54,043 nucleotides of DNA from a virus (IMGVR_UViG_3300046836_000171:1-54043); one strand, 5' to 3'. Numbered from the stretch's first letter, positions 26,461 to 51,098 are shown. The notes: generated by a model from the letters alone, not told the origin. Numbers and translations: made by a program.

Positions 26461-26524
26461 TTGCAACGGGGGCTACGTTGCATCATAGTGATGGCGCGGG
26501 AAGGGAAGCCCGCGCGACGTAGGA
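26461..26524 (+). promoter_or_regulatory. Promoter/leader cassette A
   Basis: TTGCAA-N17-CATAGT; TGCAACG-N7-CGTTGCA inverted repeat; hairpin GCGCGGG-AAGGGAAG-CCCGCGC; GACGTAGGA RBS. Confidence 0.75.
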
Positions 26525-26532
26525 TCACCACC

Positions 26533-27306
26533 ATGGAACTCTTCAAGAGACACGGGAGCCCCGCGGCGGCCGCGGGCGTCGATGAGAAGGGCAAGCCCTT
26601 CGCGATCGAAATGATCCCTTGCTCCCGGTGTGGGGGCTCGGGATGGATCAACCACTATCGCCACGTCGAGGGCGGCATCTGTTTCAAGTGTGAGGGCCAG
26701 CCTTCGCGCCTGCTGGTCGCCGTGCGGGTCAGGCTCTACAGCGCCGAAGAGCTGGCGAAGCTGAACGCGATCGCCGCGAAGAAGGCGGCGAAGAAGGCCG
26801 AGAAGGCGGCCAAGGCCGCGGCCGAGAGGGCGGCGGCGGAAGCTGCGGCGCGGATCGCTCGGGCCGCCCAGGTCGCGGCCGATCCCTTCCATCAGCGGCT
26901 TCTGAGCTACGCCGGCGAAAACGAGTTCTTGGCGAACCTCGCCGAGAAGATGCGGATCGCCGATCTGAGCGAGCGGGCGATGGAGGCGGCCGAAGAGGCG
27001 ATGGCGCGGATCGATGAGAAGCGCAGGCTGGCGGCGGAAGCCGGGTGGGTCGGCGAGCTGGGCGAGCGGATCAAGTTCGAAGGCGTGGTCAAGTCAGTCA
27101 GGCTGATCCACCAAGCGGAAGGCTATTGGGACCGGGATCGGTGGCTGGTGGTGATCGAAATCTCCGGTGGCCTGCTGAAGTGGTTCGGCAACTCGCCTCC
27201 CGCCAGCGAGGGCGAGAGGGTCAAAGGCTCGGCCAAGATCGAGAAGCACGGCGAGTTCCAGGGCATCAAAGAGAACCTGATCAAGAACCCCCGGTGGGCG
27301 GCATGA
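26533..27306 (+). CDS. Zn-finger protein with a C-terminal OB-fold-like domain
   Basis: CSRCGGSG...GICFKCEG; C-terminal WVGELGERI...KWF...K.HGEF.G.K. Confidence 0.75.
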   Translation: MELFKRHGSPAAAAGVDEKGKPFAIEMIPCSRCGGSGWINHYRHVEGGICFKCEGQPSRLLVAVRVRLYSAEELAKLNAIAAKKAAKKAEKAAKAAAERAAAEAAARIARAAQVAADPFHQRLLSYAGENEFLANLAEKMRIADLSERAMEAAEEAMARIDEKRRLAAEAGWVGELGERIKFEGVVKSVRLIHQAEGYWDRDRWLVVIEISGGLLKWFGNSPPASEGERVKGSAKIEKHGEFQGIKENLIKNPRWAA

Positions 27307-27491
27307 GCCGCGCCCTGATCATCGGGCTGGTCATCGCCGGCCCCACCGCGCTGCTGCTGGCCGGGCTCGCTGACAGCATCGCCCACCGGCGCCCATGGCG
27401 CGCGGCCGGCTGCGTCGCCGGGCTCGCGCTTCTCTACATCGCGCTCCCGGCGCTCGCCGCCTGGGACGCCGCTCAACTTCGGAGGAATTGA
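27303..27491 (+). CDS. Small two-TM membrane protein
   Basis: ATGA overlap; two hydrophobic stretches. Confidence 0.6.
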   Translation: MSRALIIGLVIAGPTALLLAGLADSIAHRRPWRAAGCVAGLALLYIALPALAAWDAAQLRRN

Positions 27492-27835
27492 TGGCGACCA
27501 TCGTCGCACCGAACCGCATCTGCCCTGAGTGCGGCCAGCGCTTCAAAGCCCACCACGGGCGCCAGCGCTTCTGCGAGACCGCGCACAAGACCGCCTTCCA
27601 CGCCCGCAACCGGGACCGCGGCAAGGTCGCGATCCCGCTGGTGCAAATCTGGCGGCTCGGGAAGAACGGCAAGACCGCCGAACGCAGCTACGCCTTCAGC
27701 CAGCTCTGCGCGCTCACCGACCTTTGGAACGAAGAGGATCGCAACGCCGGTCGCCGGCCCGATCTGGTGGTGAAGGCGAAGATGCGCGCCGGCTGGATCG
27801 CGGCCGACGCGCCGGGCGGCGGGATGGCGTACTAG
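27491..27835 (+). CDS. Zn-ribbon hypothetical protein
   Basis: GGAGG RBS; CPECG..F.......RFC...H motif. Confidence 0.7.
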   Translation: MATIVAPNRICPECGQRFKAHHGRQRFCETAHKTAFHARNRDRGKVAIPLVQIWRLGKNGKTAERSYAFSQLCALTDLWNEEDRNAGRRPDLVVKAKMRAGWIAADAPGGGMAY

Positions 27836-28521
27836 GCGGGGACCAGCCTCAGCCCGCGCTCCACCTGACGCCCAAGATCGTAGACAGCGGCCGAGCCCTC
27901 CAGCTCGGCCGTTTGCATCAGCACCGGGAGCCCGGTCTCGATCGACGTCAGGACTTCTTCGCGCGTCGCCACGCGGCCGTTCGCCCACCACTCAAGCGCT
28001 TCGGGGTCGCCCAGGCTGAACAGCACGCCGCGGCGGCCCTTCGCCCGGCCGACCGCGTGGATCAGATCGGGCGGGTGGAACGGCGTCCCCTTGCCCGTCC
28101 AAAGCAACGTGACGCCGGGGTTGCGCTGAATCCCGATCCCCGCGACCGTCGCCTCGATCGGCATCCCCACGTCGTCGCGGATGCGCTTCGGCTGGCTGAG
28201 GAACGGGCAGGCGCGGGCGCTCCAGCGGGCGCACGCCAGATGACACGGCGGCTCGGCGGTGACGCGGTTGATCGCGCACATGGGGCCGATGACGTAGGTC
28301 CCCGTCGCGCCCAGGCGGATCGGGCGGCCGCAGACCCAGCACCGGCGCTCGCGGATCGCCTGCCGAAGATGGTTGCCGTCCATGATCCTGAAGTCGGGGC
28401 CGCCATTGTGCAGCGGCGCGCTGCGGTCCACGAACCACGGGACCGGGTAGCCGCGCGGGTCCCGATCGAGCAACGCCATCAACGGCGGCAGCTCGGCGAT
28501 CAGCTCGTCAAGTCGGCTCAC
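27832..28521 (-). CDS. Conserved phage hypothetical Cys/His protein
   Basis: RGYPVPWFV, CWVCG, GPMC..NR...EPP.H..CA..S...CPFL motifs. Confidence 0.8.
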   Translation of the reverse strand: MSRLDELIAELPPLMALLDRDPRGYPVPWFVDRSAPLHNGGPDFRIMDGNHLRQAIRERRCWVCGRPIRLGATGTYVIGPMCAINRVTAEPPCHLACARWSARACPFLSQPKRIRDDVGMPIEATVAGIGIQRNPGVTLLWTGKGTPFHPPDLIHAVGRAKGRRGVLFSLGDPEALEWWANGRVATREEVLTSIETGLPVLMQTAELEGSAAVYDLGRQVERGLRLVPA

Positions 28522-29570
28522 TGGTTCAGCTCATCGATCCGGTTGGCGATCGACTTGTCGATGCGCTTGGCGTCGGCGCGGGCGTAGGCGATCAGGCGCT
28601 TGAAGCGCCGGTCGGCCACAAGCGCCTCGCCCTGCGTCGCGATCACCGCCGGATCGTCCAGCGCGATGATCCGCACGCGCTCGGCTTCGGCCCACGCCTT
28701 GATCGAGTCCATGTCGTCGGGCTGGTTGCCGGTGGAGTCCGGGGGCGGCGCGGGGGAATTATCCGGCCCTTTAAAAGGCCCTCCATTGTCCGGCGCGTCG
28801 CGCGGGTCGCGGCTGTCCTGCTTGCCGCTCGCCTTCGCCTCCCACCGCTCGCCGGCCTTGGTCTGCGCGTCGGTCGGCGGGATGGTGTCGAACTCGGGCG
28901 CGTCTTCCTCTTCGAAGAGCGCCGGGCGCCCGGCGGGGGACTCCAGCACCGCGATTTCCTCGCGCGTATAGAGCCCCAGAATGCGCGCCGGCCGGTGACG
29001 CCGCGCCCAGGCGCGGGCGCCGTAGTAGGCGAGCTGCTGATCGGCGTCACTGAACCACAGCGGCGAGTTCTTGACGCCGATCTGCGCGACGGTCGGCGTG
29101 GTGATCTGGCGCGTAACCACGCGGCCGGTGCGGGCCAGCAGCTTGCCGGTGACGCGCACGAAGCGCCCGAGCGCCAGCGGCCGCGCCGGGTCGGCATAGC
29201 CGTAATCGTAGGCCAGCGGCTCTTGCAGCAGGGGGTCGGACTCGATCAGCGCCATGACCCATTGCGCCTCATAGCCGATGCGTTCCTTGTCGCCGGCCCC
29301 GGTGAAGTAGGTCTTCGACGCCAGGGCGACCGGATCGGCCCCGAAGCGCGCAGCCTGATAGGCGATGAACATCGCCGCTTCCGGCCGGCGAAGCTGGGGC
29401 GCCATCCCCGGCGCGGTGGCGACCAGCGAGGCGGCGCGTTCCAGATCTTCCCAGGCGGCCGGCATGAAGGCCGCGTCGCGCGTGATGACCGCTACGCGGC
29501 TGGGCTCGGCGAGCGCCGGAAGGTGGGTCTCGGGCTCATCGATCGGATCGAGTTCGGCAGGTTCGGCCAT
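28518..29570 (-). CDS. recT: RecT-like single-strand annealing protein
   Basis: A.KTY, YEAQ...A.I and KNSPLW..D.DQQL.Y...RAWARRH.P..ILGLYTREE motifs; adjacent to a RecE-like gene. Confidence 0.78.
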   Translation of the reverse strand: MAEPAELDPIDEPETHLPALAEPSRVAVITRDAAFMPAAWEDLERAASLVATAPGMAPQLRRPEAAMFIAYQAARFGADPVALASKTYFTGAGDKERIGYEAQWVMALIESDPLLQEPLAYDYGYADPARPLALGRFVRVTGKLLARTGRVVTRQITTPTVAQIGVKNSPLWFSDADQQLAYYGARAWARRHRPARILGLYTREEIAVLESPAGRPALFEEEDAPEFDTIPPTDAQTKAGERWEAKASGKQDSRDPRDAPDNGGPFKGPDNSPAPPPDSTGNQPDDMDSIKAWAEAERVRIIALDDPAVIATQGEALVADRRFKRLIAYARADAKRIDKSIANRIDELNQ

Positions 29571-29584
29571 CGTCTTGCTTCCCT

Positions 29585-30730
29585 TCAGGACGTGATTGAC
29601 TCGTGTAGCACCGCGCCTCGATCGAGGCTACGGCGGGTAAAGTTGAACTCGGTCAGGCGCAGCAGCCCGCGATCGGCGACCCACATTTCGGCGTCGTCTT
29701 GGCCGAAGCGCTCGCGCATCACCCGGTAGTTCTCGCGCGCCAGATCGGCCTGCACCTTGGCGGATGAGAACGCGATCAGCCCGGTGGGGAACTCGATCGT
29801 GTCGCACTCGGGAATCCCCTGGGTCGAGACCGCGACCCACCACCACGACGGGTCGGTGAAGTCGGCCACCTTGTCGAAGAACGTCAGATCGTCGGCGGTG
29901 GGCGGCCGGGCGAAGACGGCGCCATCCTCGCCGGGCTCGGGCATCCCGCGCCAAATCTTCCGCTGCGCCACCAGCTCGGGGAGGATCGTGGTGCGCGCCT
30001 CCATGTAGTAGGCCGCCTGAACCTCATAGGCGAACTTCTCGCGGGAGGCGTTGAAGACGGCGATCGTGTCGCCGCCCTGGGCGTTGGCGAAGGTCTTCAG
30101 ATCGGCCAGCGTGCGGATGCGCAGGTAGTCGAAGCGCGCCTTGTAGCGGTCGCCATGTTCGTCGGTCCAGAACATCGAGACTTCAGCTCGGCCGCTCGAA
30201 AGGAACTTGCGCGCCTCGCTGTGGCGATCGACCACGCGGGCGGTCAGCTCGACCGACTGCCGGGTGGTCTCGCTGATCACGTCGCGCCCGTCCGCCAGCT
30301 CGGCGACTCGCACGTCCCAGCTATCCGCTAGCTCGATCCCCCAGGCGGCGCAGGCGGCTTCGAACTCGATCGCCTTGCGGCCCATGCTCGGCGGTGTCTG
30401 GCCGATCGCGCGCAGGGCGTCGGCCATCTGTTCCTTGGTGGAGGGCAGATCGGGCCGCGGCGGGCGCACGAAGTAGCGCGCATCGAATTGGTCGGGCTCG
30501 ATGATGGCGGCGTGCAGGCATGAGCCGAACCGCTTGCCGGCCGCTTCGGACTCCCGCTTCTTCAGGGGTTTGGAGTCCGCGAGGATGCGCCGCCATGTCG
30601 GATTGCGCTGCGACCCATGCCAGAAGACCGAGTTGATCAGGAGTTGCTTCAGATCGCTGGAGCCCAGCGCCGGGTCGGCGACGTGGGCCTCGTGCGGAAG
30701 ATCAAGCCAAATGCCGTCAGGAATCACCAT
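29585..30730 (-). CDS. RecE/exonuclease VIII-like PD-(D/E)XK nuclease
   Basis: H.ADPALGSS.LK, FGS..H..I.EP, EVS.FW, KARFDYL...DLKT and Y.VQAAYY motifs; alternative GTG start at 30781. Confidence 0.82.
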   Translation of the reverse strand: MVIPDGIWLDLPHEAHVADPALGSSDLKQLLINSVFWHGSQRNPTWRRILADSKPLKKRESEAAGKRFGSCLHAAIIEPDQFDARYFVRPPRPDLPSTKEQMADALRAIGQTPPSMGRKAIEFEAACAAWGIELADSWDVRVAELADGRDVISETTRQSVELTARVVDRHSEARKFLSSGRAEVSMFWTDEHGDRYKARFDYLRIRTLADLKTFANAQGGDTIAVFNASREKFAYEVQAAYYMEARTTILPELVAQRKIWRGMPEPGEDGAVFARPPTADDLTFFDKVADFTDPSWWWVAVSTQGIPECDTIEFPTGLIAFSSAKVQADLARENYRVMRERFGQDDAEMWVADRGLLRLTEFNFTRRSLDRGAVLHESITS

Positions 30731-31091
30731 GGCGTCCTGCGGGTTCGGTGGGCGAGGGGACGGCGGCGAGGACGATTTCACAACGCTCCGCCATGAACGC
30801 GTTGATCAGCGCCCTGGCCTCAGCTTCAGGCGCGCCCTTCTTGCGGTGTTCATCCACGTAGAAACGGAACTGGTTCGCGGCTAGCACCAGCGCCTTCCTC
30901 ATCCCCTCTGAGGCAGCGGCCTCGGCTGGAGCGGGAGGGGCGGCTGCGAGGACTGCGTTCCATAGTGCAGCGGCAACGGCGTCGTGGTGTCGCTGCCGGT
31001 AGCCGACAAGGGCGTCGCCCATCGCCGCCCACATTTCGCGGGTCGGCTCTCGCGGCACAAGCACCCAGCCCTCGGGTTCGGTGGTCAGCAA
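30717..31091 (-). CDS. Hypothetical protein (GWVLVPREPT.EM module plus QF..Y module)
   Basis: Common phage GWVLVP.EPT motif; the C-terminal module is shared with ORF 39306. Confidence 0.7.
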   Translation of the reverse strand: MLTTEPEGWVLVPREPTREMWAAMGDALVGYRQRHHDAVAAALWNAVLAAAPPAPAEAAASEGMRKALVLAANQFRFYVDEHRKKGAPEAEARALINAFMAERCEIVLAAVPSPTEPAGRHGDS

Positions 31092-31321
31092 GGTTGCAGC
31101 TCCAGCAACAGCTCGACCGTCTGCCCGACGTGGACCGGCCCGGCGGCCTTCGGGCTGATCACTCGCTTACAGCGGTGGGAATGTCCCTGCAACTGTCCCG
31201 TTACACGCACCGGGAAGCTGATCAGATCGTGGGTGTGCGCGAAGTCGCGCGAGGCGTTGGCGCGGACGTAGATGCCATCGCGGCGAACGCTGAGGTAGGC
31301 GAATCCGTCGAGGGTCATCAC
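31085..31321 (-). CDS. Hypothetical protein
   Basis: Coupled to both neighbours in the leftward operon. Confidence 0.5.
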   Translation of the reverse strand: MMTLDGFAYLSVRRDGIYVRANASRDFAHTHDLISFPVRVTGQLQGHSHRCKRVISPKAAGPVHVGQTVELLLELQPC

Positions 31322-32193
31322 GCCCTCACGCTTCCCAGGTAGTCGATGAAGAACACCACGCCGGGGATCGGCTGGGCCGGGACCACGACGCGGCGCTGGG
31401 CGTGCTGGTCATCGTCGCGGAACTTCCACTCGGCGAACGCTTCGGAGTCCCCGCGGTATTTGCGCAGCGCCGCCGCCAGCGCATCGGCCGTGAAGCTGGC
31501 GCCCAGCGGCCCGAGCGAGGCGCGCAGCGCCGCGACGTCTTCGACCGCGAACCCCCTCTGTGAGCGCACGCCGGTGGTGGCGACCGGCGTGCGGGTGCGG
31601 GCGACTTCCTGCACCGGCCCGCTGGCGCGCTGGTCGAGGGCGTCGGCGATCCGCTCGGTCTTCATCGCCGAGTCGAGGATGATTTCGGCCACCTGGGGCT
31701 TGTTCGCCGCTTCCTGGGCGGCTGCGGCGTCGGCCGCCGCCTGGGCCTTCTTGCGCTCGACTTCGGCCGCCTCGCGAGCGATCCGCCGCTGTTCCTCAGC
31801 GACGCGGAAACCGTAGCCGCTGATCAGCGCCTCGATCCGGCGCTTGTGGCCGGTGAGCGGCCCGAAGCGCGGGCCGGTGCTGGTGTTCAGCCCGCTGAAG
31901 AACGCATCGACGTTCCGGCCGGCGTTCAGCACCGGCGCTTTGACGTCATCGTGCGTGTCGTCAACGATCTTGGTCAGATCGCGCAGCGCGATCACCGCGG
32001 CGGCGGCAACCTGATTGTCGTCGGGGTTATCGACGGCGACGATCCCGGCCGCCTGCGCCACCAGTGCGGCGACTTGGCCGGCGAGCGGCGCGTGGTCTTC
32101 GGCGAGCTGCGTCACCGAGTAGGCGATGGCGAGCTGGTCCGCGAGAGGCGGGGCGTTGTGCCCGAGCCCAGGATTGTCAACGTCGTAGGTCAT
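31318..32193 (-). CDS. Coiled-coil hypothetical protein of the recombination module
   Basis: GHNAPP N-terminus, K.P.L..GR.VD.FF and IPGV motifs. Confidence 0.78.
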   Translation of the reverse strand: MTYDVDNPGLGHNAPPLADQLAIAYSVTQLAEDHAPLAGQVAALVAQAAGIVAVDNPDDNQVAAAAVIALRDLTKIVDDTHDDVKAPVLNAGRNVDAFFSGLNTSTGPRFGPLTGHKRRIEALISGYGFRVAEEQRRIAREAAEVERKKAQAAADAAAAQEAANKPQVAEIILDSAMKTERIADALDQRASGPVQEVARTRTPVATTGVRSQRGFAVEDVAALRASLGPLGASFTADALAAALRKYRGDSEAFAEWKFRDDDQHAQRRVVVPAQPIPGVVFFIDYLGSVRA

Positions 32194-32208
32194 GGCTGAT
32201 CTTCCCTT

Positions 32209-32430
32209 TCAGCTAATCTTGTCTCTGAGGCAGATGCGCCCGAAGGCGGTCAGCTTCATCATGGTGCGCGGTTGCCCGTTGATCGTGGTCGCGCGCAGCT
32301 CGATGAGCCCGCGGGTCTCCTGGGCGCGGCAGGCTTCGTTCGGGCTGAAGCATGGCGGGCAGAGCGCCCACTCTTCGGGGTCAACCCTCAACAGGTGGTT
32401 AAGCGCGCGGCGGTCATCGTCCGTGATCAT
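32209..32430 (-). CDS. Small winged-helix-like protein
   Basis: RGLIE...KLT.FGR pattern; ATGA overlap with the upstream gene. Confidence 0.55.
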   Translation of the reverse strand: MITDDDRRALNHLLRVDPEEWALCPPCFSPNEACRAQETRGLIELRATTINGQPRTMMKLTAFGRICLRDKIS

Positions 32431-32753
32431 GTCCCGACGTCTCCCCGCGCCGCGTCCCGCCGGGCGGCCTCGCTGCGGATGGCGGCGAACGCCTTGTCGA
32501 GCGCGCCCTTCCACGGGGCTTGGTCGTACCGACGATAACGCGCCACCAGCTCGTCATCTGACAGCAGCGTGACGTCTTCGGCTTCGGCCCGGCGGGCCAC
32601 TTCGGCCAGCAGCGCCTCGCGCTCTTCGCGCCGGTAATCCTCGCCGCGGCCGCGGGCGTCATCGAACAGTCGCGCGAGGGCATTGTGAAGGTGGCCGTTC
32701 GCCATGTCAGATATGACATGCTCGCGCCCATCGCTCGATCGGTAGGTGGTCAT
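32427..32753 (-). CDS. Hypothetical protein
   Basis: GGAGG RBS; DG....I.DM..GHL.NAL..L motif. Confidence 0.65.
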   Translation of the reverse strand: MTTYRSSDGREHVISDMANGHLHNALARLFDDARGRGEDYRREEREALLAEVARRAEAEDVTLLSDDELVARYRRYDQAPWKGALDKAFAAIRSEAARRDAARGDVGT

Positions 32754-32944
32754 GTCGCGCCTCCCGTGCGGATCAGCGCGCAGAGTCGCCGCCAGCATCG
32801 GGCGCAGAAGTGCAGCGTGCCGGGACCGATGACCGCCTTGTCTTCGCCGGCCCCGCGCCGAGGGGTGATCGACACCCAATCGGCAGGGAGCCGGTCGTGG
32901 GCCTCGGTGTCGCAGTCCTTGCCGTCGCAGCGGTAGGCGATCAT
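32750..32944 (-). CDS. Small Zn-finger protein
   Basis: CDG.DC...HFC..C motif. Confidence 0.65.
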   Translation of the reverse strand: MIAYRCDGKDCDTEAHDRLPADWVSITPRRGAGEDKAVIGPGTLHFCARCWRRLCALIRTGGAT

Positions 32945-32974
32945 TTCAGCGGCTCCCCAGCAGCAGCGCGCCCC

Positions 32975-34114: not shown

Positions 34115-34118
34115 CTGG

Positions 34119-34304
34119 TCAGCCGATCGGCGCGCGGATCGGACGGATGCGGTTCAGCAGCGCGGGCGCCCAATACTTCGCCCAACTCAGCAGGTTCGCG
34201 TCGCGCTCGGGACCATCGGGCTCGGCCATGATCATGTCGAACTCGACGTAGCACTCGGCCTCATCGGCCGTGCGGAAGTCGATCGGTTGGGGGCCGCGGA
34301 CCAT
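34119..34304 (-). CDS. Hypothetical protein
   Basis: Fills the gap in the leftward operon. Confidence 0.5.
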   Translation of the reverse strand: MVRGPQPIDFRTADEAECYVEFDMIMAEPDGPERDANLLSWAKYWAPALLNRIRPIRAPIG

Positions 34305-34307
34305 CGC

Positions 34308-34541
34308 TCAACCCACCAGCGCCGGCGGCGTGGCCGCCTTCACTTCGGCGATATGCGCGGCGCAGGCGTCGCGCAGGCGCTCCAGCATGGTCAGCCGCGC
34401 CTCGCCGCTGAAGCCGACCAGCAGGCAGCTCAGCCCGCCGATCGTCAGGAACGAAAAGCCGGGGGCTGGAACGCTGAAGTTCAGGCTGGCGGGATCGTCG
34501 CCGACCCAAACCGTGATTTCGGTGCGCGGTGCGCTCATCAT
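34308..34541 (-). CDS. Hypothetical protein, first gene of the leftward operon
   Basis: ATG directly after the GGTAGGG RBS of cassette B. Confidence 0.6.
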   Translation of the reverse strand: MMSAPRTEITVWVGDDPASLNFSVPAPGFSFLTIGGLSCLLVGFSGEARLTMLERLRDACAAHIAEVKAATPPALVG

Positions 34542-34545
34542 GTTT

Positions 34546-34610
34546 TCCCTACCTCGCGCCGGCTTCCCGCCGACTCCCGATCTGTGCGCCGAGCCGCCCC
34601 GGCGTGTCAA
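34546..34610 (-). promoter_or_regulatory. Promoter/leader cassette B (leftward)
   Basis: TTGACA -35 (34605-10); hairpin GTCGGC-GGGAA-GCCGGC; GAGGTAGGG RBS; -10 unclear. Confidence 0.65.
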
Positions 34611-34625
34611 CAGGCGTGACATGGC

Positions 34626-40835: not shown

Positions 40836-40837
40836 TC

Positions 40838-41631: not shown

Positions 41632-41686
41632 TCTGGCTGCTGCTGGCGATGTTCTGCCCGAGCTGGCCGTGGCCGCGACATGCGCC

Positions 41687-43638: not shown

Positions 43639-46508
43639 TGGCTGACGACGCCGGCACGTTCGCCCAGCCCTACCGAGTGGTCGCAAGCGCCCGCTGGTCG
43701 CAGCCGGCGCGCGGCCCCGAGTGGACGCTAACCGGCATGGACGCGCTCGCCGGCGGGCTCGGGGCCAGCGCCGAGCTGGTCCCCTACAGCCACGTCCCGC
43801 GGATGAACCCGAAGGATATCTTCAGGGCCTACCAGCCGCCCCCAGGCTTCGGCGCGGCCGGCGTCGATGCGGCCAAGGGCGGCGACGCCACGCTGGCGAT
43901 GGACGAAGCGATTGCGATCGCCCAGGATTGGGACAACGCCGTGGGCGCCCACGCGCTCCAGATCGGCGGCGCGCAGCTCACCCAGGGCATCGGCTTCCTG
44001 GGCTACCCGTTCCTCGCCGAGCTATCGCAGCGCCCCGAGTACCGGAAGATCAGCGAGACGATCGCCGAAGAGCTGACCCGTAAGTGGATCAGGGTCTCAT
44101 CGATCAGCGACGGCGAGGACAAGACGCAGAAGGTCGATGACCTGAACGGGGCGATCGAGCGCTTCCGCGTGCGCGAGCGCTTCCACAAGGCGGCCGAGCT
44201 GGACGGCTTCATGGGCCGATCGCAGCTCTACATCGACGTGGGGAAGAGCAGCGACGCAGCCGAGCTGGCGACGCCGCTCATGCTGACGCCCGAGAAGATC
44301 GCCAAGGGCTCGCTCAAGGGCTTCCGCGTGGTCGAGCCCATGTGGAGCTATCCGCTCGACTACAATTCATCGGACCCGCTGGCCGAGAACTTCTACGTCC
44401 CCGTGAGCTGGGCGGTGATGCAGCGCCGCGTCCACGCCTCGCGCCTGCTGACCTTCATCGGCCGCCCGATGCCCGATCTGCTGAAGCCGGCCTACGCCTT
44501 CGGCGGGCTCAGCCTCAGCCAGATGGCGATGCCCTACGTGCAGAACTGGCTGCGCACCCGGCAGTCGGTCAGCGACCTGATCCACAGCTTCAGCGTGATG
44601 ATCCTCTCGACCGACATGGGCGCGACGCTCGACGCGGAGGGCATGAACAAGCTGTTGCGCCGCGCCCAGGCGGCCGCCCTCTTCCGCGACAACCGCGGGC
44701 TCCAGATCATCAACAAGGCGACCGAAGAGTTCGCCAACGTCAGCGCACCGCTGAGCGGCCTCGACGCGCTTCAGGCGCAGTCGCAGGAACAGATGGCGAG
44801 CGTCAGCGGCATCCCGCTGGTCAAGCTGCTGGGAATCACGCCGAGCGGGCTGAACGCCTCATCGGATGGCGAGGTTCGGGTCTTCTACGACCGGGTGAAG
44901 GCGACCCAGGAGAAGTTCATGGGGCCGAACCTGAAGCATGTCATGGACGTGCTTCAGCTCAATGAGTGGGGCGAGGTTGACCCCGATATCGTCTATGAGT
45001 GGGTTCCGCTGTGGGAGCTGGACGAAGCCGGCAAGGCCGCGGTGCGCAAGACCGACGCGGACACCGGCGCGGTGCTGATCGAGTCGGGGGCGCTGGCGAC
45101 CGAAGAAGAGCGCAAGCGCATCGCGAGCGCGCCGGATTCGCCCTACCAGGGGCTCGACGTCGATGACATGCCCGATCCGCCCGACATGGGCGAGGGCGAA
45201 GAGGGCGCGCCGGATATCCCCGGCGCTGGGGCGAAGGCGAGCGGCAACCCGGCGAGGACTGCCGAGCCTGCGGCCGTCGAGCGCGCCGGCGACCATGCGC
45301 TCGACGCCGAGTTCCGCGAGTCCGACCACCCGCGCGACAATGACGGCAAGTTCAGCGAGGGCGGCGGTGGTGGCGGTGGCGGTGGCGCGGTCGAGAGGCG
45401 ACGGGCTGGGGCTAACCCGGCCAAGCTGACCAAGCCGCAGCGCGTCGCGCTTGAAAGGGTCGCTGCCGGTCAGCAGCCGGGCAACGTCGGTCATGTGCGC
45501 GAGCGCCTTACGGAGGGGGGGCTGATCCATCACACCTTCAACGAACATGGAATTGGCACCGCGCACCTGACCGAGAAGGGGCGCGCGGCGCTGGGGATCA
45601 AAGAGCCGAGCGCGCCGCCCCCGGCCAACGTCCATCCCGAAGTCGCCAAGACGCTCGGCGAGGCGGGGCTCAAGCGTCTGCACGATGCGATCGGCAGCAA
45701 GGATCACAAGTCGATCCTCGCCGCGCTCGCCCCCGCGGCCGGAAAGCGGCGCGAGGGCGCGTCGATGCCGATCGAGCATCACGGCTCGCCCCAGGCGATC
45801 GCGAAGTTCCTGGGATCGCGCACCTACGTCGCGCCGGACGGATCGGAGGCCAGCCACCCCGAAATCATCGATCATCTGGTGGACAAGGCGCTGAGCTACG
45901 CGGGGGCCGGTGGCGTGCGACGGAATCGTGAAGTGCTGTTCGTCACCGGGCCGCCGGCGGCCGGCAAGTCCACGATCGCCGAAATCCTCGCCGAGCGGAA
46001 CGGCGCGGCGATCCTCGACCCCGACGACGCGAAGAAGGTCATCCCCGAGTTCAACGGCGGCCTCGACTCCAGCTACGTCCACGAAGAGTCGTCAACGCTC
46101 ACCGGCTACGTCGGGGGGCGCCTGACCGATGAGGGCGCGAACATCATCTATCCGATGGTGGGGGACAGCGCGGAGAAGATCAGCAAGAAGATCGATGACT
46201 ACCGCGCCAAGGGCTACAAGGTCGGCATCGTCAATCTGGACGTCTCGGCCGACAACGCCGCGCAGCGCATGGCGAGGCGGTTCGTGAAGACCGGCCGGCT
46301 GATCGATCCCGGCTACTTCGGGAGCATCGTGAACGAAGAAGCGCCGCAGAAAGCCTATGCGGCCCTGCGGCAGGATAGTCGCCTAGAGCTGGGCGCGGCC
46401 CAGGTGGACGGGAACACCGCGCCGGGCGAGGAAGCGATCAAAGACGTGATCGGCTCGCCGGCGGGCTATCGCCACGGCCAGCTCGCGAAGGGGCGGCAAG
46501 CGCCCTAG
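43638..46508 (+). CDS. Portal protein (DUF1073-type) fused to an HPR motif, a winged-helix-like segment and a zeta-toxin-like P-loop kinase
   Basis: Portal motifs FLGYP.LAEL.QRPEY, VH.SRL, IPLVKLLGITP.GLNASSDGE and W.PLW in aa ~100-500; ALDAEFRESDHPRDNDGKF at ~aa 554; GPPAAGKST at aa 771; DPDDAK..IPEF, VHEESS and R...R...TGR motifs. Confidence 0.9.
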   Translation: MADDAGTFAQPYRVVASARWSQPARGPEWTLTGMDALAGGLGASAELVPYSHVPRMNPKDIFRAYQPPPGFGAAGVDAAKGGDATLAMDEAIAIAQDWDNAVGAHALQIGGAQLTQGIGFLGYPFLAELSQRPEYRKISETIAEELTRKWIRVSSISDGEDKTQKVDDLNGAIERFRVRERFHKAAELDGFMGRSQLYIDVGKSSDAAELATPLMLTPEKIAKGSLKGFRVVEPMWSYPLDYNSSDPLAENFYVPVSWAVMQRRVHASRLLTFIGRPMPDLLKPAYAFGGLSLSQMAMPYVQNWLRTRQSVSDLIHSFSVMILSTDMGATLDAEGMNKLLRRAQAAALFRDNRGLQIINKATEEFANVSAPLSGLDALQAQSQEQMASVSGIPLVKLLGITPSGLNASSDGEVRVFYDRVKATQEKFMGPNLKHVMDVLQLNEWGEVDPDIVYEWVPLWELDEAGKAAVRKTDADTGAVLIESGALATEEERKRIASAPDSPYQGLDVDDMPDPPDMGEGEEGAPDIPGAGAKASGNPARTAEPAAVERAGDHALDAEFRESDHPRDNDGKFSEGGGGGGGGGAVERRRAGANPAKLTKPQRVALERVAAGQQPGNVGHVRERLTEGGLIHHTFNEHGIGTAHLTEKGRAALGIKEPSAPPPANVHPEVAKTLGEAGLKRLHDAIGSKDHKSILAALAPAAGKRREGASMPIEHHGSPQAIAKFLGSRTYVAPDGSEASHPEIIDHLVDKALSYAGAGGVRRNREVLFVTGPPAAGKSTIAEILAERNGAAILDPDDAKKVIPEFNGGLDSSYVHEESSTLTGYVGGRLTDEGANIIYPMVGDSAEKISKKIDDYRAKGYKVGIVNLDVSADNAAQRMARRFVKTGRLIDPGYFGSIVNEEAPQKAYAALRQDSRLELGAAQVDGNTAPGEEAIKDVIGSPAGYRHGQLAKGRQAP

Positions 46509-46678
46509 GGCTTCTTGCCCTTGTTCTCTGCGAACCGCGGGTCATCCTTGGCGAGAGGCGTTCCGACCAGCGGAACCTCGCCGCGCATGACCGCCCGTTC
46601 GAAGTCGTCCATCCGATCCTGCGCCGCCGGCCCGTGGGGACCGTCGCGCCAATCGGCGGGTTTCTGTTTGTCTGCCAT
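46505..46678 (-). CDS. 57-aa ORF convergent on the portal-toxin gene (candidate immunity protein)
   Basis: MADKQKPADWRDGPHGPAAQDRMDDFERAVMRGEVPLVGTPLAKDDPRFAENKGKKP; AGGT RBS; stop overlaps the portal stop in CTAG; absent from the ORF track. Confidence 0.7.
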   Translation of the reverse strand: MADKQKPADWRDGPHGPAAQDRMDDFERAVMRGEVPLVGTPLAKDDPRFAENKGKKP

Positions 46679-46696
46679 GTTGGCTACCTAAGCGGG

Positions 46697-46837
46697 TTAG
46701 TCTCCTTCTTCAAGTTCGTCTTCCGGCTCATCATCGCCGTCGAGGCGGTTGCCGTCTTCGTCGCGGGGCGCTTCGTCCGCCTCGCGCATTAGGCGCTCAC
46801 GCCAATCGGCGTTCCGGTTGGGCCAGCGGGGAGTCAT
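46697..46837 (-). CDS. 46-aa highly acidic protein
   Basis: MTPRWPNRNADWRERLMREADEAPRDEDGNRLDGDDEPEDELEEGD; AAGGAG RBS; ATGA overlap; absent from the ORF track. Confidence 0.7.
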   Translation of the reverse strand: MTPRWPNRNADWRERLMREADEAPRDEDGNRLDGDDEPEDELEEGD

Positions 46838-47064
46838 CGGTCGGCTCCTTCATTCAGCTCGCGCAGCCCGCGGCCGATCAACTCCACGATCTTGCCGTGG
46901 CGCGTCTCGCCGGGCTGGGCGTCTATCGCCGCCGCCATGTCGGGCTCCAGCCGCAGCGCGATCTGAACCCGCTTCACGGCCCGCGGCGGGCGTCCCATGC
47001 GCTTCGGTGGGTTGGCCGCGGCGAGCTGGGCGTACAGCTCGGCCGCGTCGGGCTTGGCGGTCAC
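46834..47064 (-). CDS. Ribbon-helix-helix (Arc/BrnA-like) DNA-binding protein
   Basis: GRPP...RVQIALRLEPDM...ID......R...IVELI..GL pattern. Confidence 0.7.
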   Translation of the reverse strand: MTAKPDAAELYAQLAAANPPKRMGRPPRAVKRVQIALRLEPDMAAAIDAQPGETRHGKIVELIGRGLRELNEGADR

Positions 47065-47264
47065 AGGTTGCTCCCTTTTGTCGCGACCTGGAGCCGCGCT
47101 TTGGCGATCATCTGCCGGGCCTTGGCGCCCGACAGATCGAGCGGCGGATGATGGCGGGCAGAGTGAGGATCGCCGCGCTGCACCGCGAGCTCCCGGAGCG
47201 TCTTCGTCCCCTCAAAGCGGACTTGGTAGGTCGCCCCGGTGTCGTCGCTGACGTAGACGATCAT
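47061..47264 (-). CDS. Hypothetical protein
   Basis: GGAGG RBS; coupled on both sides. Confidence 0.6.
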   Translation of the reverse strand: MIVYVSDDTGATYQVRFEGTKTLRELAVQRGDPHSARHHPPLDLSGAKARQMIAKARLQVATKGSNL

Positions 47265-47743
47265 GCGACCGCCCTCCGAGCCTTAGCTCGCGCCTGCCAT
47301 TCGTCCGCCGCCTTCGCCTGGGCGGCGTCGCGCGGCAGATACATGGCCGGATCGAGGAACGCTCCGAGCGCTTCGCGATCCTCATCGTTGAAGTGCGAGT
47401 TGTCGGGCTTCGCCACTCCGCGCGATGCGTGATGCTCTAAGAACTCGCGCGGCCAATCGAACACGTCGGGGTTCTCGCTGGCCAGCTCGACGGCGGCCGA
47501 CAGGTCGGCGCGGCGCGGGCTCTTGATCCGGTTTTTGTAGTGCTGGAGCGCGCCGGTGCAGAGGCTCGCTTTCCCGGTCCCGCCGCACGTCTTGTGGCAG
47601 GCGATCGGGATATCGAGCTGCACCATCGCCACGAACTCGACGGCCGGGAAGCCGCCCAGCCAGCCCGGCGGGTGCTTGCGCCGCCACGGACATTCATCGC
47701 AGGGCTGCGCGCCCGCGGGCTTCATCTGCAAGTCATCGGTCAT
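47261..47743 (-). CDS. Cys-rich protein (DUF6283-like)
   Basis: PC.ECPWRR...F...ACH.T.....LC.G motif; first gene after cassette C. Confidence 0.7.
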   Translation of the reverse strand: MTDDLQMKPAGAQPCDECPWRRKHPPGWLGGFPAVEFVAMVQLDIPIACHKTCGGTGKASLCTGALQHYKNRIKSPRRADLSAAVELASENPDVFDWPREFLEHHASRGVAKPDNSHFNDEDREALGAFLDPAMYLPRDAAQAKAADEWQARAKARRAVA

Positions 47744-47753
47744 CTGTCTCGTC

Positions 47754-47817
47754 TCCTACGTTGTGCGGCTTCCCGGCCGCTGGTTGATGGATATCAGATA
47801 TCAGGGAACGGCGTCAA
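47754..47817 (-). promoter_or_regulatory. Promoter/leader cassette C
   Basis: TTGACG-N17-ATATCC; tandem TGATATC; hairpin GCGGC-CGGGAA-GCCGC; ACGTAGGAG RBS. Confidence 0.8.
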
Positions 47818-48017
47818 GTCAGGGGACTCTCCAAAAGCTGAAGGATCACGAGACAAAGCACCGCGTGCGGGTCCTGGTTGGGGTCTGGATCATCGACCAC
47901 GGAAAGGGCGTCGCGCATGAGTCGCCTGATCTCAGTCACCGTGAACCCGCGTGGCCGAACGCCCATGCTCCGCAGCATCCGTTTGACTTCCTGCATCCCG
48001 TGTCGGTCACGCATCAC
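47814..48017 (-). CDS. Hypothetical protein
   Basis: Short ORF filling the gap; start uncertain. Confidence 0.45.
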   Translation of the reverse strand: MMRDRHGMQEVKRMLRSMGVRPRGFTVTEIRRLMRDALSVVDDPDPNQDPHAVLCLVILQLLESPLT

Positions 48018-48855
48018 AGGTGGCGGCGAGCAAGCCTTCGATCCGCTCGGCGGCCCACGTCGTGTTGCGCCCCAGGTGACGCTGCCATGCGCCTTCCGAG
48101 GGCGCCCAGCGGAAGCCGCTTGCCTTCAGGGCCGCGATGATCGCCGGCGCGGGCTTGCCGGGGAACTTGAGCTGGAGGCGGTTGGCTTCGATGTTCTCGA
48201 CCACCACCAGCCCGCCGGCCCCCTCGCGCTCGATCTTGTCGATCCCCGCCTCGATCAGCGGCGCGCGCTCGGCCTCGATGCGCTCCAGGTGCGCGATCCG
48301 CTTCTTGATCCGGCGCATGTTGGCCGAGCGGTTGGAGAACCGGTAAGCCGGTATCCCGACCAGACGCGGTAGTCTGGGGTAGGGCGGGACCAGAAGCTTC
48401 TCGGCCAAGTCCTCGCTGTAGCCGAGGGCGACGATGGCCGCGACCTGGGCCTCGTGGCCCGCGCTCCAGTTCTTCTTGATCGCCGCGTTGATCGCCAACT
48501 CCTGGGCGTGCTTGGCTTCGTGCTCGGCTAGCTCGGCCTTCAGCTTCGAGACCGCGTCCGGGTCGTCGCTGCTGATCCCGCCCAGGCCGACACCCGCCGC
48601 TCTGGCCTCGACCGCCGCCGCCTCTTTCGAGAGCGCGACGCCTCGACCCATGGCCGCGTGAGCCCGCGCGATGACCGCGCGGTGGCGGCGCTCGCTATGG
48701 TGCCCGACCAAGATCGGCTGACCGAAGGGGATGCCGGTCGCCGCCTCGCTCAGATCGGCGCGCTTGAACGCGCCGGCGGCCTCGCGCTGGAGCCGTTCGG
48801 CCCGCGCCTCAAGGCGCTCGCGGCGCGCCTCCTGCTTGGCTTCGTAATGGTTCAA
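48007..48855 (-). CDS. DUF3560-domain protein
   Basis: N.YE.K.E.RRER, GIPFGQPILVGHHSERRHR, ISSDDPDAV.KL and NRLQL.FPGKP......LK..GFRWAPS..AWQR motifs; TTG start. Confidence 0.85.
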   Translation of the reverse strand: MNHYEAKQEARRERLEARAERLQREAAGAFKRADLSEAATGIPFGQPILVGHHSERRHRAVIARAHAAMGRGVALSKEAAAVEARAAGVGLGGISSDDPDAVSKLKAELAEHEAKHAQELAINAAIKKNWSAGHEAQVAAIVALGYSEDLAEKLLVPPYPRLPRLVGIPAYRFSNRSANMRRIKKRIAHLERIEAERAPLIEAGIDKIEREGAGGLVVVENIEANRLQLKFPGKPAPAIIAALKASGFRWAPSEGAWQRHLGRNTTWAAERIEGLLAATCDA

Positions 48856-49103
48856 TTCCCGTCTCCTTCTGGTAGGGCGTGCAGGCGCTTCAGCGCGCGA
48901 TCGTGGGCGCTGAAGATGCCGTTAAGTTCCAGGGCGCGCAGCCAGCTATGCCCCGTGCGGTCGATCGAGTTGCCCCCGTTCAGGGTCTCTCGCGCCGCCT
49001 CCATGAAGCGCGCCAGCTTGTCGGCGTCGGCCGCCCAGGGGTAGCGCTTCAGCTCTTCCTCGTAGGCCGCGAGGATTCCGGCTTTGGTTCCGTGCTGCGC
49101 CAT
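48852..49103 (-). CDS. Hypothetical protein
   Basis: TGATG coupling; MAQHGTKAGIL... Confidence 0.65.
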   Translation of the reverse strand: MAQHGTKAGILAAYEEELKRYPWAADADKLARFMEAARETLNGGNSIDRTGHSWLRALELNGIFSAHDRALKRLHALPEGDGN

Positions 49104-49423
49104 CAATCCACGTAGCTCCATGCCTTCGAAGGGTTGATGCCGTGAGCGCTGGCGGCGGCCTCGAAAGCCCGCTTCGCCTTGATTTCGATCTGGTCGTGCT
49201 GCGACCGGATGCCTTTGGGCATCCGCTTGGCGACGTAGACCTGATCGGACTTGAAGCCGTAGCCGGCGGCCAGCAGCGCCTTGGCGAACTTGGTGTTCGC
49301 GCGGTAGCCGAGCATGTAGCCGCCGCAGCTCCCGCAGTCCTGCTTGCCGTCCTTCTCCCACTGAGCGAGCGCTGCGGCGTCGTGGGCCGCGATGCACTCG
49401 GCAAGGATCGCTTCGATGTTCAT
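49103..49423 (-). CDS. Hypothetical protein (begins MNIEA)
   Basis: First gene after cassette D; DCGSCGG and Q....K..A..A..A...GI motifs. Confidence 0.75.
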   Translation of the reverse strand: MNIEAILAECIAAHDAAALAQWEKDGKQDCGSCGGYMLGYRANTKFAKALLAAGYGFKSDQVYVAKRMPKGIRSQHDQIEIKAKRAFEAAASAHGINPSKAWSYVD

Positions 49424-49432
49424 CTGAGTGGT

Positions 49433-49497
49433 TCCTACGTGGCGCGGCCTTCCCAAGCCGCAGATAATGGATATCAGGAAATAGGATCGGCCGTCAA
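49433..49497 (-). promoter_or_regulatory. Promoter/leader cassette D
   Basis: TTGACG-N17-ATATCC; hairpin GCGGCT-TGGGAA-GGCCGC; ACGTAGGA RBS. Confidence 0.8.
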
Positions 49498-50004
49498 CCA
49501 CTTTCGCAGCTCGGCGCGCATTTTTCCGATCGGCCCATTGATGGTGGTGGTGCGAGCCGACTCCATGACGTACCCGGCGCGCCGGAACTCGCCCAGGAAG
49601 GCGCGCATCACCGTGAGGTAGAGCGCCCCGCCGCACAGCGCGACGTCATCGAAGGGCTCGGCGTCGAGCGTCGGGGTCAGGGTCATCGAGTGCGCTTCGG
49701 CCGCGGCGTGCATCCCGCCCATGCTGCCCTTGCCGTACTCGGGCCAGCGCTTGCCGATCCCGCCGTCGATCATGCGCTCGGCCAGCTCGGCGGTGAGGCG
49801 GGTGTCGTAGGGCTGCGTCTGAAGCCAGCGCGCTTCATTGAAGCCGTAGCGGGCGGACAGCACCGCTACCCGCGCCAGCTCGCCCTTCGGGTCCACAGCC
49901 TTGAGCGTCAACCAAAGGGGGCCACGATAGCGCTCCAGCGCCGTCATGTAGCCGGGCGCCGGGTCCTTCGTAGCCGAACACGCGAGGATCAGAAGGCGCT
50001 TCAT
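49474..50004 (-). CDS. DUF6884/YaaA-like protein
   Basis: LLILACS.TK....A.E.Y.GP.W, .LSA.YG, PYD.RLT, GG..Y and G.IG..R..L..W motifs. Confidence 0.75.
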   Translation of the reverse strand: MKRLLILACSATKDPAPGYMTALERYRGPLWLTLKAVDPKGELARVAVLSARYGFNEARWLQTQPYDTRLTAELAERMIDGGIGKRWPEYGKGSMGGMHAAAEAHSMTLTPTLDAEPFDDVALCGGALYLTVMRAFLGEFRRAGYVMESARTTTINGPIGKMRAELRKWLTADPIS

Positions 50005-50180
50005 GGGCGCGCCCTGGTCAGGTACTCGACACCGATCCACTCGGCGGCGCGGTTGGGCCAGAAGACATAAGCTCGCGTCCCGCGCTCGCCCAGGTCGCGA
50101 ACCTCATGCACGTCGCCCCGCGGCCCACGCGGATCGTCGCGGTGATAGACCCGTTCGCCGGGCTCCAGCTCTTTCATCAT
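50001..50180 (-). CDS. Small SH3-like hypothetical protein
   Basis: AAAGGA RBS; PGERV.H......G.V...A.V.W.....W....L pattern. Confidence 0.6.
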   Translation of the reverse strand: MMKELEPGERVYHRDDPRGPRGDVHEVRDLGERGTRAYVFWPNRAAEWIGVEYLTRARP

Positions 50181-50749
50181 GCTCCGATCCTTTCCTTGTG
50201 GCGCCGCTCGTAGGCGCGGACTTCCTTCTCGGCCTTCTCCAGCAGGCGCTTGGCGCGCTCCAGCTCGGCCGCCCACTTGTCGCGCCGGGCGACCATCCGG
50301 CGGTAGCGCTGCGCCACCACGTCGGGCTTGGCGGGCGCAGGCGGCGGCGCGACGGGCTCGACCAGCTTCGGCTCATGCCACCCCCGACTGATCGCGAACT
50401 TGGTCAGTCGCGCCTCAAGCCGCATCTGGCGGATCGAGTGCGGCGCGTCCTTCGGGTGAAGCCGGTAGTGGGCGACGTGGCTGATCGCGTGAATGATCCC
50501 GCGGATGCCGCCCTCCCCAGGTAGGTCAGGGTTCACGTAGAAGGTCCCGCGGATCGGCCGGGTGACGCGCCGGCCGCTGGTCAGCTTCCACTCACCTTTC
50601 CAGCCCTTCCCGGTGGCGTGGCGCCACAGCTTGCGGGCCGCCGCGAGGCTGTCCGCTGGGCTCAGCACGGGCCGCCTGCCGCCCCACAGTGTGTTGATGT
50701 TCTGGTCCCAAAGGGCGCGGTCGCGCCGGGTGCGCTGCTGGGCGTTCAT
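50177..50749 (-). CDS. Basic hypothetical protein with a His cluster
   Basis: GGAGG RBS; IIHAISHVAH...PH (zincin-like but lacking the catalytic Glu); C-terminal coiled coil. Confidence 0.7.
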   Translation of the reverse strand: MNAQQRTRRDRALWDQNINTLWGGRRPVLSPADSLAAARKLWRHATGKGWKGEWKLTSGRRVTRPIRGTFYVNPDLPGEGGIRGIIHAISHVAHYRLHPKDAPHSIRQMRLEARLTKFAISRGWHEPKLVEPVAPPPAPAKPDVVAQRYRRMVARRDKWAAELERAKRLLEKAEKEVRAYERRHKERIGA

Positions 50750-51015
50750 CAAGCCTCCAATCCGAGTTGAGCGTTGAGGCGGCCTTTGAACCAAGGGCGG
50801 TCGTCGAGCGCGTCCTGGGTACGCTCGATCCGGGTGACGCCGAAGGCGTAGAACCAGTTCCGGCCGTCGATATCTGCGGCCGCCTCGCTGGCCGGGAACA
50901 CAAAGGGCTCGGCCGCTTCCTTCGTGTCGAACGGCCCCGCCAGCCATGCGACGCGGGTGTTCGCGCCGCCGACTGGTCCGTCGATCATGGTCACGTAGAA
51001 CGCTTCGATGTTCAT
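50749..51015 (-). CDS. Hypothetical protein (begins MNIEA)
   Basis: First gene after cassette E; FYVT..DG...LAGPF.T.E.A...D....F.AFG motif. Confidence 0.75.
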   Translation of the reverse strand: MNIEAFYVTMIDGPVGGANTRVAWLAGPFDTKEAAEPFVFPASEAAADIDGRNWFYAFGVTRIERTQDALDDRPWFKGRLNAQLGLEA

Positions 51016-51026
51016 GTTGGTGGTTC

Positions 51027-51098
51027 TCCTACGTCGCCGGCTTCCCAACCGGCACATTCTGGATATCATGTTAGTTCGATCATTGTCAACATCGAACT
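51027..51098 (-). promoter_or_regulatory. Promoter/leader cassette E with an operator-like palindrome
   Basis: TTGACA-N17-ATATCC; AGTTCGAT-N10-ATCGAACT flanks the -35; hairpin GCCGGT-TGGGAA-GCCGGC; ACGTAGGAG RBS. Confidence 0.8.

Follow-up and report, generated by a model that had tools for sequence, protein, structure and literature searches.

A repeated promoter-like cassette with a fixed-loop hairpin in a soil phage: a candidate RNA element

What is the role of a short GC-rich hairpin with an unchanging loop core that stands between a putative promoter and the ribosome site at five places in one phage genome? The stretch analysed here, called the window throughout, is the whole of the virus record IMGVR_UViG_3300046836_000171 (54,043 bases; 66-71% G+C throughout, 68% overall). 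The element is a cassette of putative early promoter, hairpin and ribosome-binding site, present as A (26461..26535, + strand), B (34539..34610, - strand), C (47741..47817, -), D (49421..49497, -) and E (51013..51089, -). A preliminary description of this DNA had named these five sites; all are found where it placed them, and the stems that it listed can be read in the sequence. From the pattern of conservation we infer that the element works as RNA, and a factor acting in trans may read its loop.

The cassette, its copies and its hairpin

The pattern GGGAAG-N1-14-GTAGG has six matches in the window, against a mean of 0.13 in 100 shuffled sequences, none of which reaches six; the sixth match (19647-19666, -) falls within a coding sequence and has a stem of only 4 base pairs (bp). 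By a single fixed rule for stems, at least 5 bp enclose GGGAA in 5/5 cassettes and at 3 of the 93 other GGGAA sites of the window. A covariance model (R1) seeded with C, D, E and one copy from another phage, with A and B left out, places A (25.4 bits, E 1.5e-4) and B (17.3 bits, E 0.017) right after its seeds, the best remaining score among the 45 matches listed being 14.5 bits. With a second model, covering the whole cassette (R2), the window record yields exactly five copies, G001 two and G015 four, two of which were not seeds and score 29.2 and 15.6 bits. G001, a fragment of 26.7 kb, retains cassettes A and B and has a beta clamp 96% identical to that of the window. G015 is a phage record of 49.6 kb (about 59% G+C in the part examined) with four cassettes of the same build; it shares almost no genes with the window phage, a DUF3560 protein (39%) and a weak nuclease match being all that BLAST detects between their proteins.

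The window cassettes follow one order: a -35 element, a weak -10, the hairpin, 3-5 unpaired nucleotides (nt), GTAGG(A/G), 5-10 nt and ATG, so that the sequence of loop GGGAAG, GTAGG and start codon reported earlier is recovered with these distances. The -35 is TTGACR in B-E and TTGCAA in A, at the right distance in 5/5. All -10 regions are weak, reading TATCCA behind TG-A in C, D and E and otherwise CATAGT or CACAGA. That of C, D and E is one identical word, TGATATCCA, which can be read as a putative extended -10 (TG-A-TATCCA) with an 18-bp spacer; the TTGACR-N17-ATATCC noted previously as common to these three copies is indeed there. A generic consensus promoter scan calls none of the five cassettes, and it is therefore by inference that each site is taken as an early promoter plus leader cassette, with a promoter of sigma-70 type. 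In G015 the -35 is TTGMCA or TTGATA and the -10 is CATTGT, CATAGT or CATACA, followed by a stem at a window-like distance, a GGAG-type ribosome site and ATG. In a standard promoter, +1 lies about 35 nt from the first T of the -35. The first stem base comes 33-37 nt after that T in 11/11 cassettes (5 in the window, 2 in G001, 4 in G015); therefore the stem should start between about -2 and +3, at the predicted +1, and the transcript would open with the hairpin.

Pairing in the stems was assessed on an alignment of 8 hairpins (5 window, 1 G001, 2 G015) with 500 shuffles. Standard pairs fill 89.1% of the cells, compared with 65.6% after shuffling; both sides have changed at 3/6 pairs (9 cells); and the covariation score is 0.607 against 0.203. 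None of these values is reached by any shuffle. Sliding the 3' partners by 1-3 columns lowers pairing to at most 47.8%, and the figures are slightly conservative because a gap misplaced by MAFFT costs the B and G001_B rows a pair. Cognate arms are paired at 5/5 positions and non-cognate arms at a mean of 2.6/5; 13 of 90 non-cognate combinations pair fully, so the set comprises about five stem classes rather than ten. In sequencing runs X2 and X3 a natural variant at 51052 gives hairpin E a U.G as its second pair in place of C-G.

The loop behaves differently. Its GGGA core is invariant in 11/11 hairpins, with A, C, U or no base before it and A, C or U after it. The hairpin appears in both the minimum free energy (MFE) and the centroid fold of 7/7 leaders, and on its own is predicted at -8.1 to -14.0 kcal/mol in the window cassettes, with stems of 5-7 bp. 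Compensatory stem changes around a fixed loop, claimed at the outset, are thus borne out, as is a selected 5'-leader structure, given that pairing is kept through both-side changes and that the stem sits at the predicted +1. Rfam offers no counterpart: the whole window gives 0 matches at gathering thresholds, and permissive scans of 47600-51200 and 26300-26700 place nothing on any cassette. The RNA motif is new in the sense of having no Rfam family.

What may read the loop

Because the loop stays fixed while the stems drift, something appears to read its sequence. We propose, tentatively and at rather less than an even chance, that a trans-acting factor binds the loop and, with the GGA of the ribosome site, controls translation or decay of the first cistron in all five units. 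Control of the five cassettes by one common factor is plausible, because all of them share the motif. In such a scheme, an early sigma-70-type promoter would start the transcript, and its first nucleotides would fold into a GC hairpin of 5-7 bp with the loop core GGGA(A), followed by 3-5 unpaired nt, the Shine-Dalgarno sequence GUAGG(A/G) and the AUG of the unit's first gene. The 5'-terminal stem would shield the 5' end of the early mRNAs. The GGA of the loop and a further one that lies 16-19 nt downstream, within the ribosome site, would form an operator of two sites, for a protein that recognises GGA in hairpin loops. Once bound, this protein would block the ribosome site or change decay, and the first cistron of all five units would answer to one factor.

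By analogy with known sites, the leading candidate for the factor is a protein of the CsrA/Rsm type, an identification that we consider doubtful. The high-affinity site of CsrA/RsmE is an ANGGAX hexaloop directly on a stem, AGGGA pentaloops being bound with high affinity as well (PMC4005645). The CsrA consensus obtained by SELEX is RUACARGGAUGU with GGA in a hairpin loop, one CsrA dimer bridges two sites 10-63 nt apart, and CsrA at a 5' end can shield an mRNA from RNase E, as for flhDC (PMC7652899). GGA lies in the hairpin loop in 5/5 window hairpins and in 6/6 of those in G001 and G015. The spacing between loop GGA and Shine-Dalgarno GGA, 16-19 nt in 5/5 window cassettes, falls within the bridged range of 10-63 nt (PMC7652899), and is 14-20 nt in G015. 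The G015 loops are AGGGAA, AGGGAC and, twice, CAGGGAUGA: 2/4 are exact ANGGAX hexaloops and 2/4 are CAGGGAUGA. In the window only A holds AGGGAA, within an 8-nt loop. The two cassette phages share no candidate protein, and 36 or 37 other phages with DUF3560 lack the cassette; a host-encoded factor is therefore more likely than a phage-encoded one.

Several observations weigh against this proposal. The leading A of ANGGAX is present in 1/5 window loops, the others having C, U, U or none, and the stems exceed most SELEX ligands, with their four pairs at most (PMC7652899), in length and strength. The nearest gene relatives point to Alpha- or Betaproteobacteria. Among five genomes with the nearest DUF3560 relatives, CsrA is present in one (a Rhodospirillaceae metagenome-assembled genome, 87.6 bits) and was not found in the two Inquilinus, one Parapusillimonas and one Pleomorphomonas genomes; nor was a CsrA gene found in the three phage records (window, G001 and G015). 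The covariation comes from 8 hairpins in 3 records, partly paralogues, and so does not count independent events, and whole-leader folding energies are not unusual (z -1.74 to +0.37), a measure that is uninformative at such high G+C. Finally, GGGAA occurs within 30 nt upstream of 5/61 non-cassette genes against 1.44 expected (P about 0.016), and GGGAAG stands 6-8 nt before internal start codons, so the loop could instead be a mimic of a ribosome site.

In its boldest form the proposal has two otherwise unrelated phages independently putting the first gene of every early unit behind a two-site GGA operator, at which a host CsrA/Rsm-type regulator would gate early translation. We think this unlikely; a limited literature search found no phage early regulon on CsrA-type sites. 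If it is true, the phage would read the physiological state of its host at infection, through an early regulon built on a host post-transcriptional regulator. Reading of the loop by a host factor such as CsrA would mean control of phage early genes by a global regulator of the host, which is directly testable. If no host factor reads the loop, the cassette would still be a compact, portable expression unit, packing a promoter, a 5' stabiliser and a strong ribosome site into 77 nt.

The ompA and T7 gene 10 leaders are familiar cases of 5' stem-loops that stabilise mRNA, and the rival that survives best makes the hairpin a plain stabiliser of this sort. A stem at +1 would slow 5'-end-dependent decay of the RNase E/RppH type and keep the ribosome site unpaired, GGGA being a stable GNRA-type cap and no trans factor being involved. 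The position of the stem at the predicted +1 in 11/11 cassettes suits this explanation, as do the GC-rich stems, at -7 to -14 kcal/mol across the window, G001 and G015, and the GGGA tetraloop in which D, E and two G015 copies fold; it also needs no shared phage protein, which fits the BLAST comparison of the window phage with G015. A loop kept for stability only should, however, drift among GNRA and other stable loops, whereas GGGA is fixed in 11/11 hairpins of two unrelated phages while stems have changed on both sides at 3/6 pairs, and no standard pair closes the GGGA of A, B, C and two G015 copies, which is thus not a clean tetraloop. As a complete account, stabilisation strikes us as rather improbable, although protection of the 5' end is very probably a further effect of the 5'-terminal stem, to judge from its position alone.

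A less probable rival, to which we give little credence, holds that the loop displays GGGAAG as a Shine-Dalgarno-like word and captures the 30S subunit, as a standby or enhancer for the true site some 16-19 nt downstream. It draws on the GGGAAG-type words 6-8 nt before the ATG of the internal genes at 28518-29570, 31085-31321, 31318-32193 and 40838-41086, two of which lie in the loop of a 5-7 bp hairpin (32195-32213, -, and 40818-40839, +) that ends 1 nt before the ATG or overlaps it, and on the upstream enrichment of GGGAA (5 against 1.44 expected). The hairpin at 32195-32213, before gene 31318-32193, is identical in G001. Against mimicry, the true ribosome sites behind the G015 cassettes are canonical GGAG types (AGAGGAG, AAGGAG, AGGGAG and GGAGGA), yet the loops there keep GGGA rather than GGAG; GGGAAG would also pair just moderately with the standard anti-Shine-Dalgarno sequence, which may not be that of the host.

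The inverted repeat might instead act in DNA, as the operator of a phage repressor or as a hot spot for cassette recombination of the kind proposed for the stem-loops of PeSLs (promoter-early stem-loops), repeated cassettes of T4-like phages. Positions +1 to +18 would suit an operator, mosaic joints fall at the 3' edge of cassette A (in G001) and of D (in a contig of run X4, from 49421), and a small ribbon-helix-helix-like protein may be encoded at 46834-47064, as judged by eye with no family matched. Phage mosaics in general often have joints at gene starts, though, and the half-sites vary around a fixed asymmetric centre, the reverse of what selection by a dimeric DNA binder would leave. Moreover, B, D, E and the G015_1 hairpin contain G.U pairs, with T opposite G, that preserve an RNA stem and not a DNA palindrome, which leaves a DNA site very unlikely.

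A nut/boxB-like antitermination site was among the functions first suggested. Here a small phage protein would bind a GNRA-like loop and modify RNA polymerase. The lambda boxB is a 5-bp stem with a GNRNA pentaloop; the GGGAA pentaloop of hairpin B, on a GC stem, fits the GNRNA pattern, and each site comes early in its transcript. The other 4/5 loops are not pentaloops, having 6 or 8 nt or a GGGA tetraloop, and the hairpin at +1 leaves no room on its 5' side. The boxA word is YGCTCTTWA; allowing 1 mismatch it has 9 matches against 12.4 expected, none in a leader or near any cassette. Terminator-like sites on the minus strand were predicted neither in 26000-35000 nor in 46000-54043, and no intrinsic terminator is predicted on the strand of the cassettes within their units; rho-dependent sites are beyond such prediction. 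No small protein common to both phages is detected by BLAST, which N-like peptides could escape. The suggestion thus keeps very little probability.

Least probable of these is a terminator or attenuator of upstream transcription, as with T4-type PeSL stem-loops, which act as terminators (PMC2839356): C and D, within a leftward array, would meet read-through from E, but no U run follows any of the five stems, 0/5 are called by a terminator scan, and a stem after the -10 would stop the cassette's own transcript too. An antisense target, also suggested at first, can be set aside, the lone extra complement of ACGTAGGA, at 38980, being within chance expectation and no other partner being seen.

The cassettes in their genome

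By gene content (PHROG and Pfam scans) the phage is myovirus-like but not T4-like, with Mu-F-like head morphogenesis, an HI1409-type portal and a contractile tail. A late rightward block runs from 51185 across the record ends to 26372 and carries head, sheath, tape measure, baseplate and fibre genes. It is followed by a small rightward unit (26533-27835), a leftward unit (34541-27832) and a rightward unit (34651-46508) with two methylases, DnaA-domain proteins, DUF1376, HNH, small terminase, deformylase, large terminase and portal; a leftward array (51015-46505) holds small genes, most without a family, plus DUF3560 and DUF6283. The preliminary description had the cassettes head the non-structural units. 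Each of A-E does precede a unit, and none stands at the rightward 34651-46508, with its methylases, DnaA-domain proteins, terminase and portal. Nor is the regulon phage-wide, as had been supposed, two long rightward units, 34651-46508 and that from 51185, being without a cassette; no common late-promoter word was found in the upstream regions of these two.

Cassette A has its -35, TTGCAA, at 26461-26466, followed by the hairpin at 26494..26515 (+; GCGCGGG / loop AAGGGAAG / CCCGCGC; -14.0 kcal/mol), GTAGGA at 26519-26524 and ATG at 26533 (R2 61.5 bits). Behind it lie two genes of no assigned function, 26533-27306 and about 27491-27835. The late block that ends before it is closed by a strong terminator-like hairpin with a T run (26374-26440, +), and the sub-threshold Rfam matches there (Xoo2, sX11 and other small-RNA families) reflect this terminator only. 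Opposite the cassette A -35, on the other strand (26440-26458, -), a hairpin of 5 bp has the loop ACAGGGAA, which agrees with the CsrA SELEX word over its ACARGGA portion; the hairpin, closely followed by the bidirectional terminator at about 26404-26438, is present in G001 too and may be due to chance.

Cassette B (-35 TTGACA at 34610-34605, GTAGGG at 34552-34547, ATG at 34541; R2 57.5 bits) has the hairpin GUCGGC / loop GGGAA / GCCGGC at 34558..34574 (-; 34574-34558 as transcribed; -9.7 kcal/mol). The unit behind it extends leftward to 27832 and encodes the beta clamp, a PD-(D/E)XK exonuclease and a RecT-like protein.

Cassettes C and D are putative internal promoters of the one leftward array. 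C comprises a -35 TTGACG (47817-47812), the -10 region TGATATCC, a hairpin from 47780 to 47765 (47765..47780, -; GCGGC / loop CGGGAA / GCCGC; -8.1 kcal/mol), GTAGGAG (47759-47753) and ATG (47743), with an R2 score of 57.9 bits; the DUF6283 gene and three small genes follow, down to 46505. In D, the -35 TTGACG (49497-49492) sits within the 3' end of the upstream gene, and GTAGGA (49438-49433) and ATG (49423) follow the hairpin (R2 73.2 bits). Hairpin D, at 49444..49461 (-, reading 49461-49444), folds as GCGGCU / loop UGGGAA / GGCCGC or as 7 bp with a GGGA tetraloop, at -11.1 kcal/mol. Its genes are a 106-residue ORFan and the DUF3560 gene (48007-48855).

Cassette E, with -35 TTGACA at 51089-51084, GTAGGAG at 51032-51026 and ATG at 51015 (R2 67.4 bits), carries the hairpin GCCGGU / loop UGGGAA / GCCGGC from 51053 to 51036 (51036..51053, -; -11.4 kcal/mol), and is followed by an 88-residue ORFan and further genes down to 49474. 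In leader E (50986-51035, -) the MFE and centroid folds both pair the ribosome-site block ACGUAGGA, over 8 bp, with UUCUACGU inside codons 6-8 of the first gene (z -1.74); no equivalent is predicted in the other four leaders. Among the first genes, C1 alone, the DUF6283 gene, belongs to a Pfam family; none is assigned to A1, B1, D1 and E1.

Homology between G001 and the window runs through cassette A, stops at 26523/26524, within the ribosome site, and resumes at 27297, the 257-residue first gene being replaced in G001 by a 64-residue gene that starts ATGAACATCGAG. A contig of run X4 matches 49421-50010 only, that is, a 188-residue gene plus cassette D, ending exactly at the ATG of the next gene. 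The D1 and E1 proteins are unrelated (BLASTP E 2.1), yet their genes have the same first 15 bases, ATGAACATCGAAGCG (49409-49423 and 51001-51015, -). Cassettes D and E have different promoter spacers, discriminators and stems, whereas the -35, TGATATCCA, UGGGAAG, ACGTAGGA and first codons are identical, and identical blocks amid differing parts point to a patchwork of kept blocks, not a recent copy. The cassette thus behaves, as far as sequence comparison goes, as a portable module, with the genes behind it exchanged between close relatives. Elsewhere, G001 lacks the region of a putative C5 cytosine methylase (34821-35776) and has 196 unrelated bases in its place.

The spread of the cassette is narrow. 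At E ≤ 0.1, R2 matches 4/40 records; among 37 other phage records with a DUF3560 relative, 36 give no match and one (G031) a marginal partial match of 14.8 bits. Searches with the DUF3560 protein yielded 38 viral loci and 47 genome loci, with cassettes in G015 only and none in the 47 prokaryote loci; the beta clamp yielded one locus, G001, and the 188- and 160-residue proteins gave no relative loci. The check proposed in the preliminary description, a covariance model taken to related phages, succeeded in recovering A and B unseeded, in covariation above the shuffles and in the G001 and G015 copies, and failed to extend to 36/37 of the other DUF3560 phages. Among cultured phages, megablast of 24 kb gave no match and blastn of cassette E gave 7 weak chance matches, and R1 scanned over Burkholderia phage Magia scored at most 13.1 bits, with no cassette. 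Word searches were similarly negative: among at least 120 matches listed for GGGAAG-N7-11-ACGTAGGA in viral contigs none has a stem and a nearby ATG, the 3 matches of TGATATCC-N12-16-GGGAAG-N6-11-ACGTAGG in metagenome contigs are all chance, and a scan of the collection for the G015-type word returned G015 itself only. One further record, G038, from a phage of 38% G+C, has an isolated GC hairpin, CCGGC/CGGGAA/GCCGG, at locus L167 (G038:C1:42604-42638, -), with an ATG following about 17 nt later; R2 makes no call there, and a GC hairpin of this kind is unusual in AT-rich sequence.

The window phage itself is known from soil and rhizosphere metagenomes only, no RNA run being among the public sequencing runs that carry its DNA. 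Its TerL is nearest to those of Burkholderia phages (58% identity to Burkholderia phage Bups phi1), its beta clamp has its nearest relatives in alphaproteobacterial phages (33%), and its DUF3560 protein is 40-49% identical to proteins of Inquilinus and Alcaligenaceae genomes. TerL was absent from 401 sampled genomes of the class of G040 (E ≤ 1e-50), an atlas search for the host returned viral clusters only, and no tRNA genes were found in the window. The first 934 bases (1-934) and the last 934 (53110-54043) are 93% identical. Either this is a diverged terminal redundancy, the assembly having merged two strains, or a tandem paralogue is really present; without the repeat, the genome may amount to about 53.1 kb.

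Comparison with known systems

The lambda nut sites resemble the window cassettes in their short GC stem with a purine-rich, GNRA-like loop, placed early in early transcripts and at more than one site per phage. By contrast, the window cassettes have no boxA, carry the hairpin at the very 5' end with mostly hexaloops, and number five sites, each directly before a ribosome site, with no terminators predicted downstream. The ompA and T7 gene 10 stabilisers likewise place a stem at, or within 2-3 nt of, the mRNA 5' end, upstream of a free ribosome site; they need no fixed loop, whereas in the window the loop is the most conserved part.

Similar too are the CsrA/Rsm leaders such as glgC and hcnA, in which a loop GGA tops a stem and a second GGA overlaps the Shine-Dalgarno sequence (PMC4005645, PMC7652899). 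The inter-site distance of 16-19 nt lies within the 10-63 nt that a dimer bridges (PMC7652899), and the G015 loops match ANGGAX and CARGGAUG. The differences from these sites are a missing leading A in 4/5 window loops and window stems longer than those of typical ligands.

The nearest described kind are the PeSLs of T4-like phages, repeated cassettes of a sigma-70 promoter and a GC stem-loop beside ORFans that are reported to mediate modular shuffling (Arbiol et al. 2010, PMC2839356; Comeau et al. 2014, PMC4122927); the window cassettes are filed as a variant of that kind and not as members. Like PeSLs, they are short composite cassettes repeated within one genome (PMC2839356), combine a sigma-70-like early promoter, putative in the window, with a GC-rich stem-loop and a ribosome site, and stand ahead of small genes of no assigned function at points of gene replacement between close relatives. 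Unlike them, they occur outside the T4-like phages, to which descriptions of PeSLs are confined: the window phage has Mu-F-like head genes and a contractile tail. The PeSL stem-loop is described as a terminator of variable position, with five subclasses, whereas the window stem always sits at the predicted +1 and has no U run; the window cassettes further differ in their invariant GGGA loop and compensatory stem changes. A fixed +1 stem, the lack of a U run, an invariant loop and compensatory change together point to an RNA role in the cassette's own transcript. What emerges is a PeSL-like cassette in a very different, uncultured, high-GC soil phage, with a stem-loop that bears the marks of a selected RNA element.

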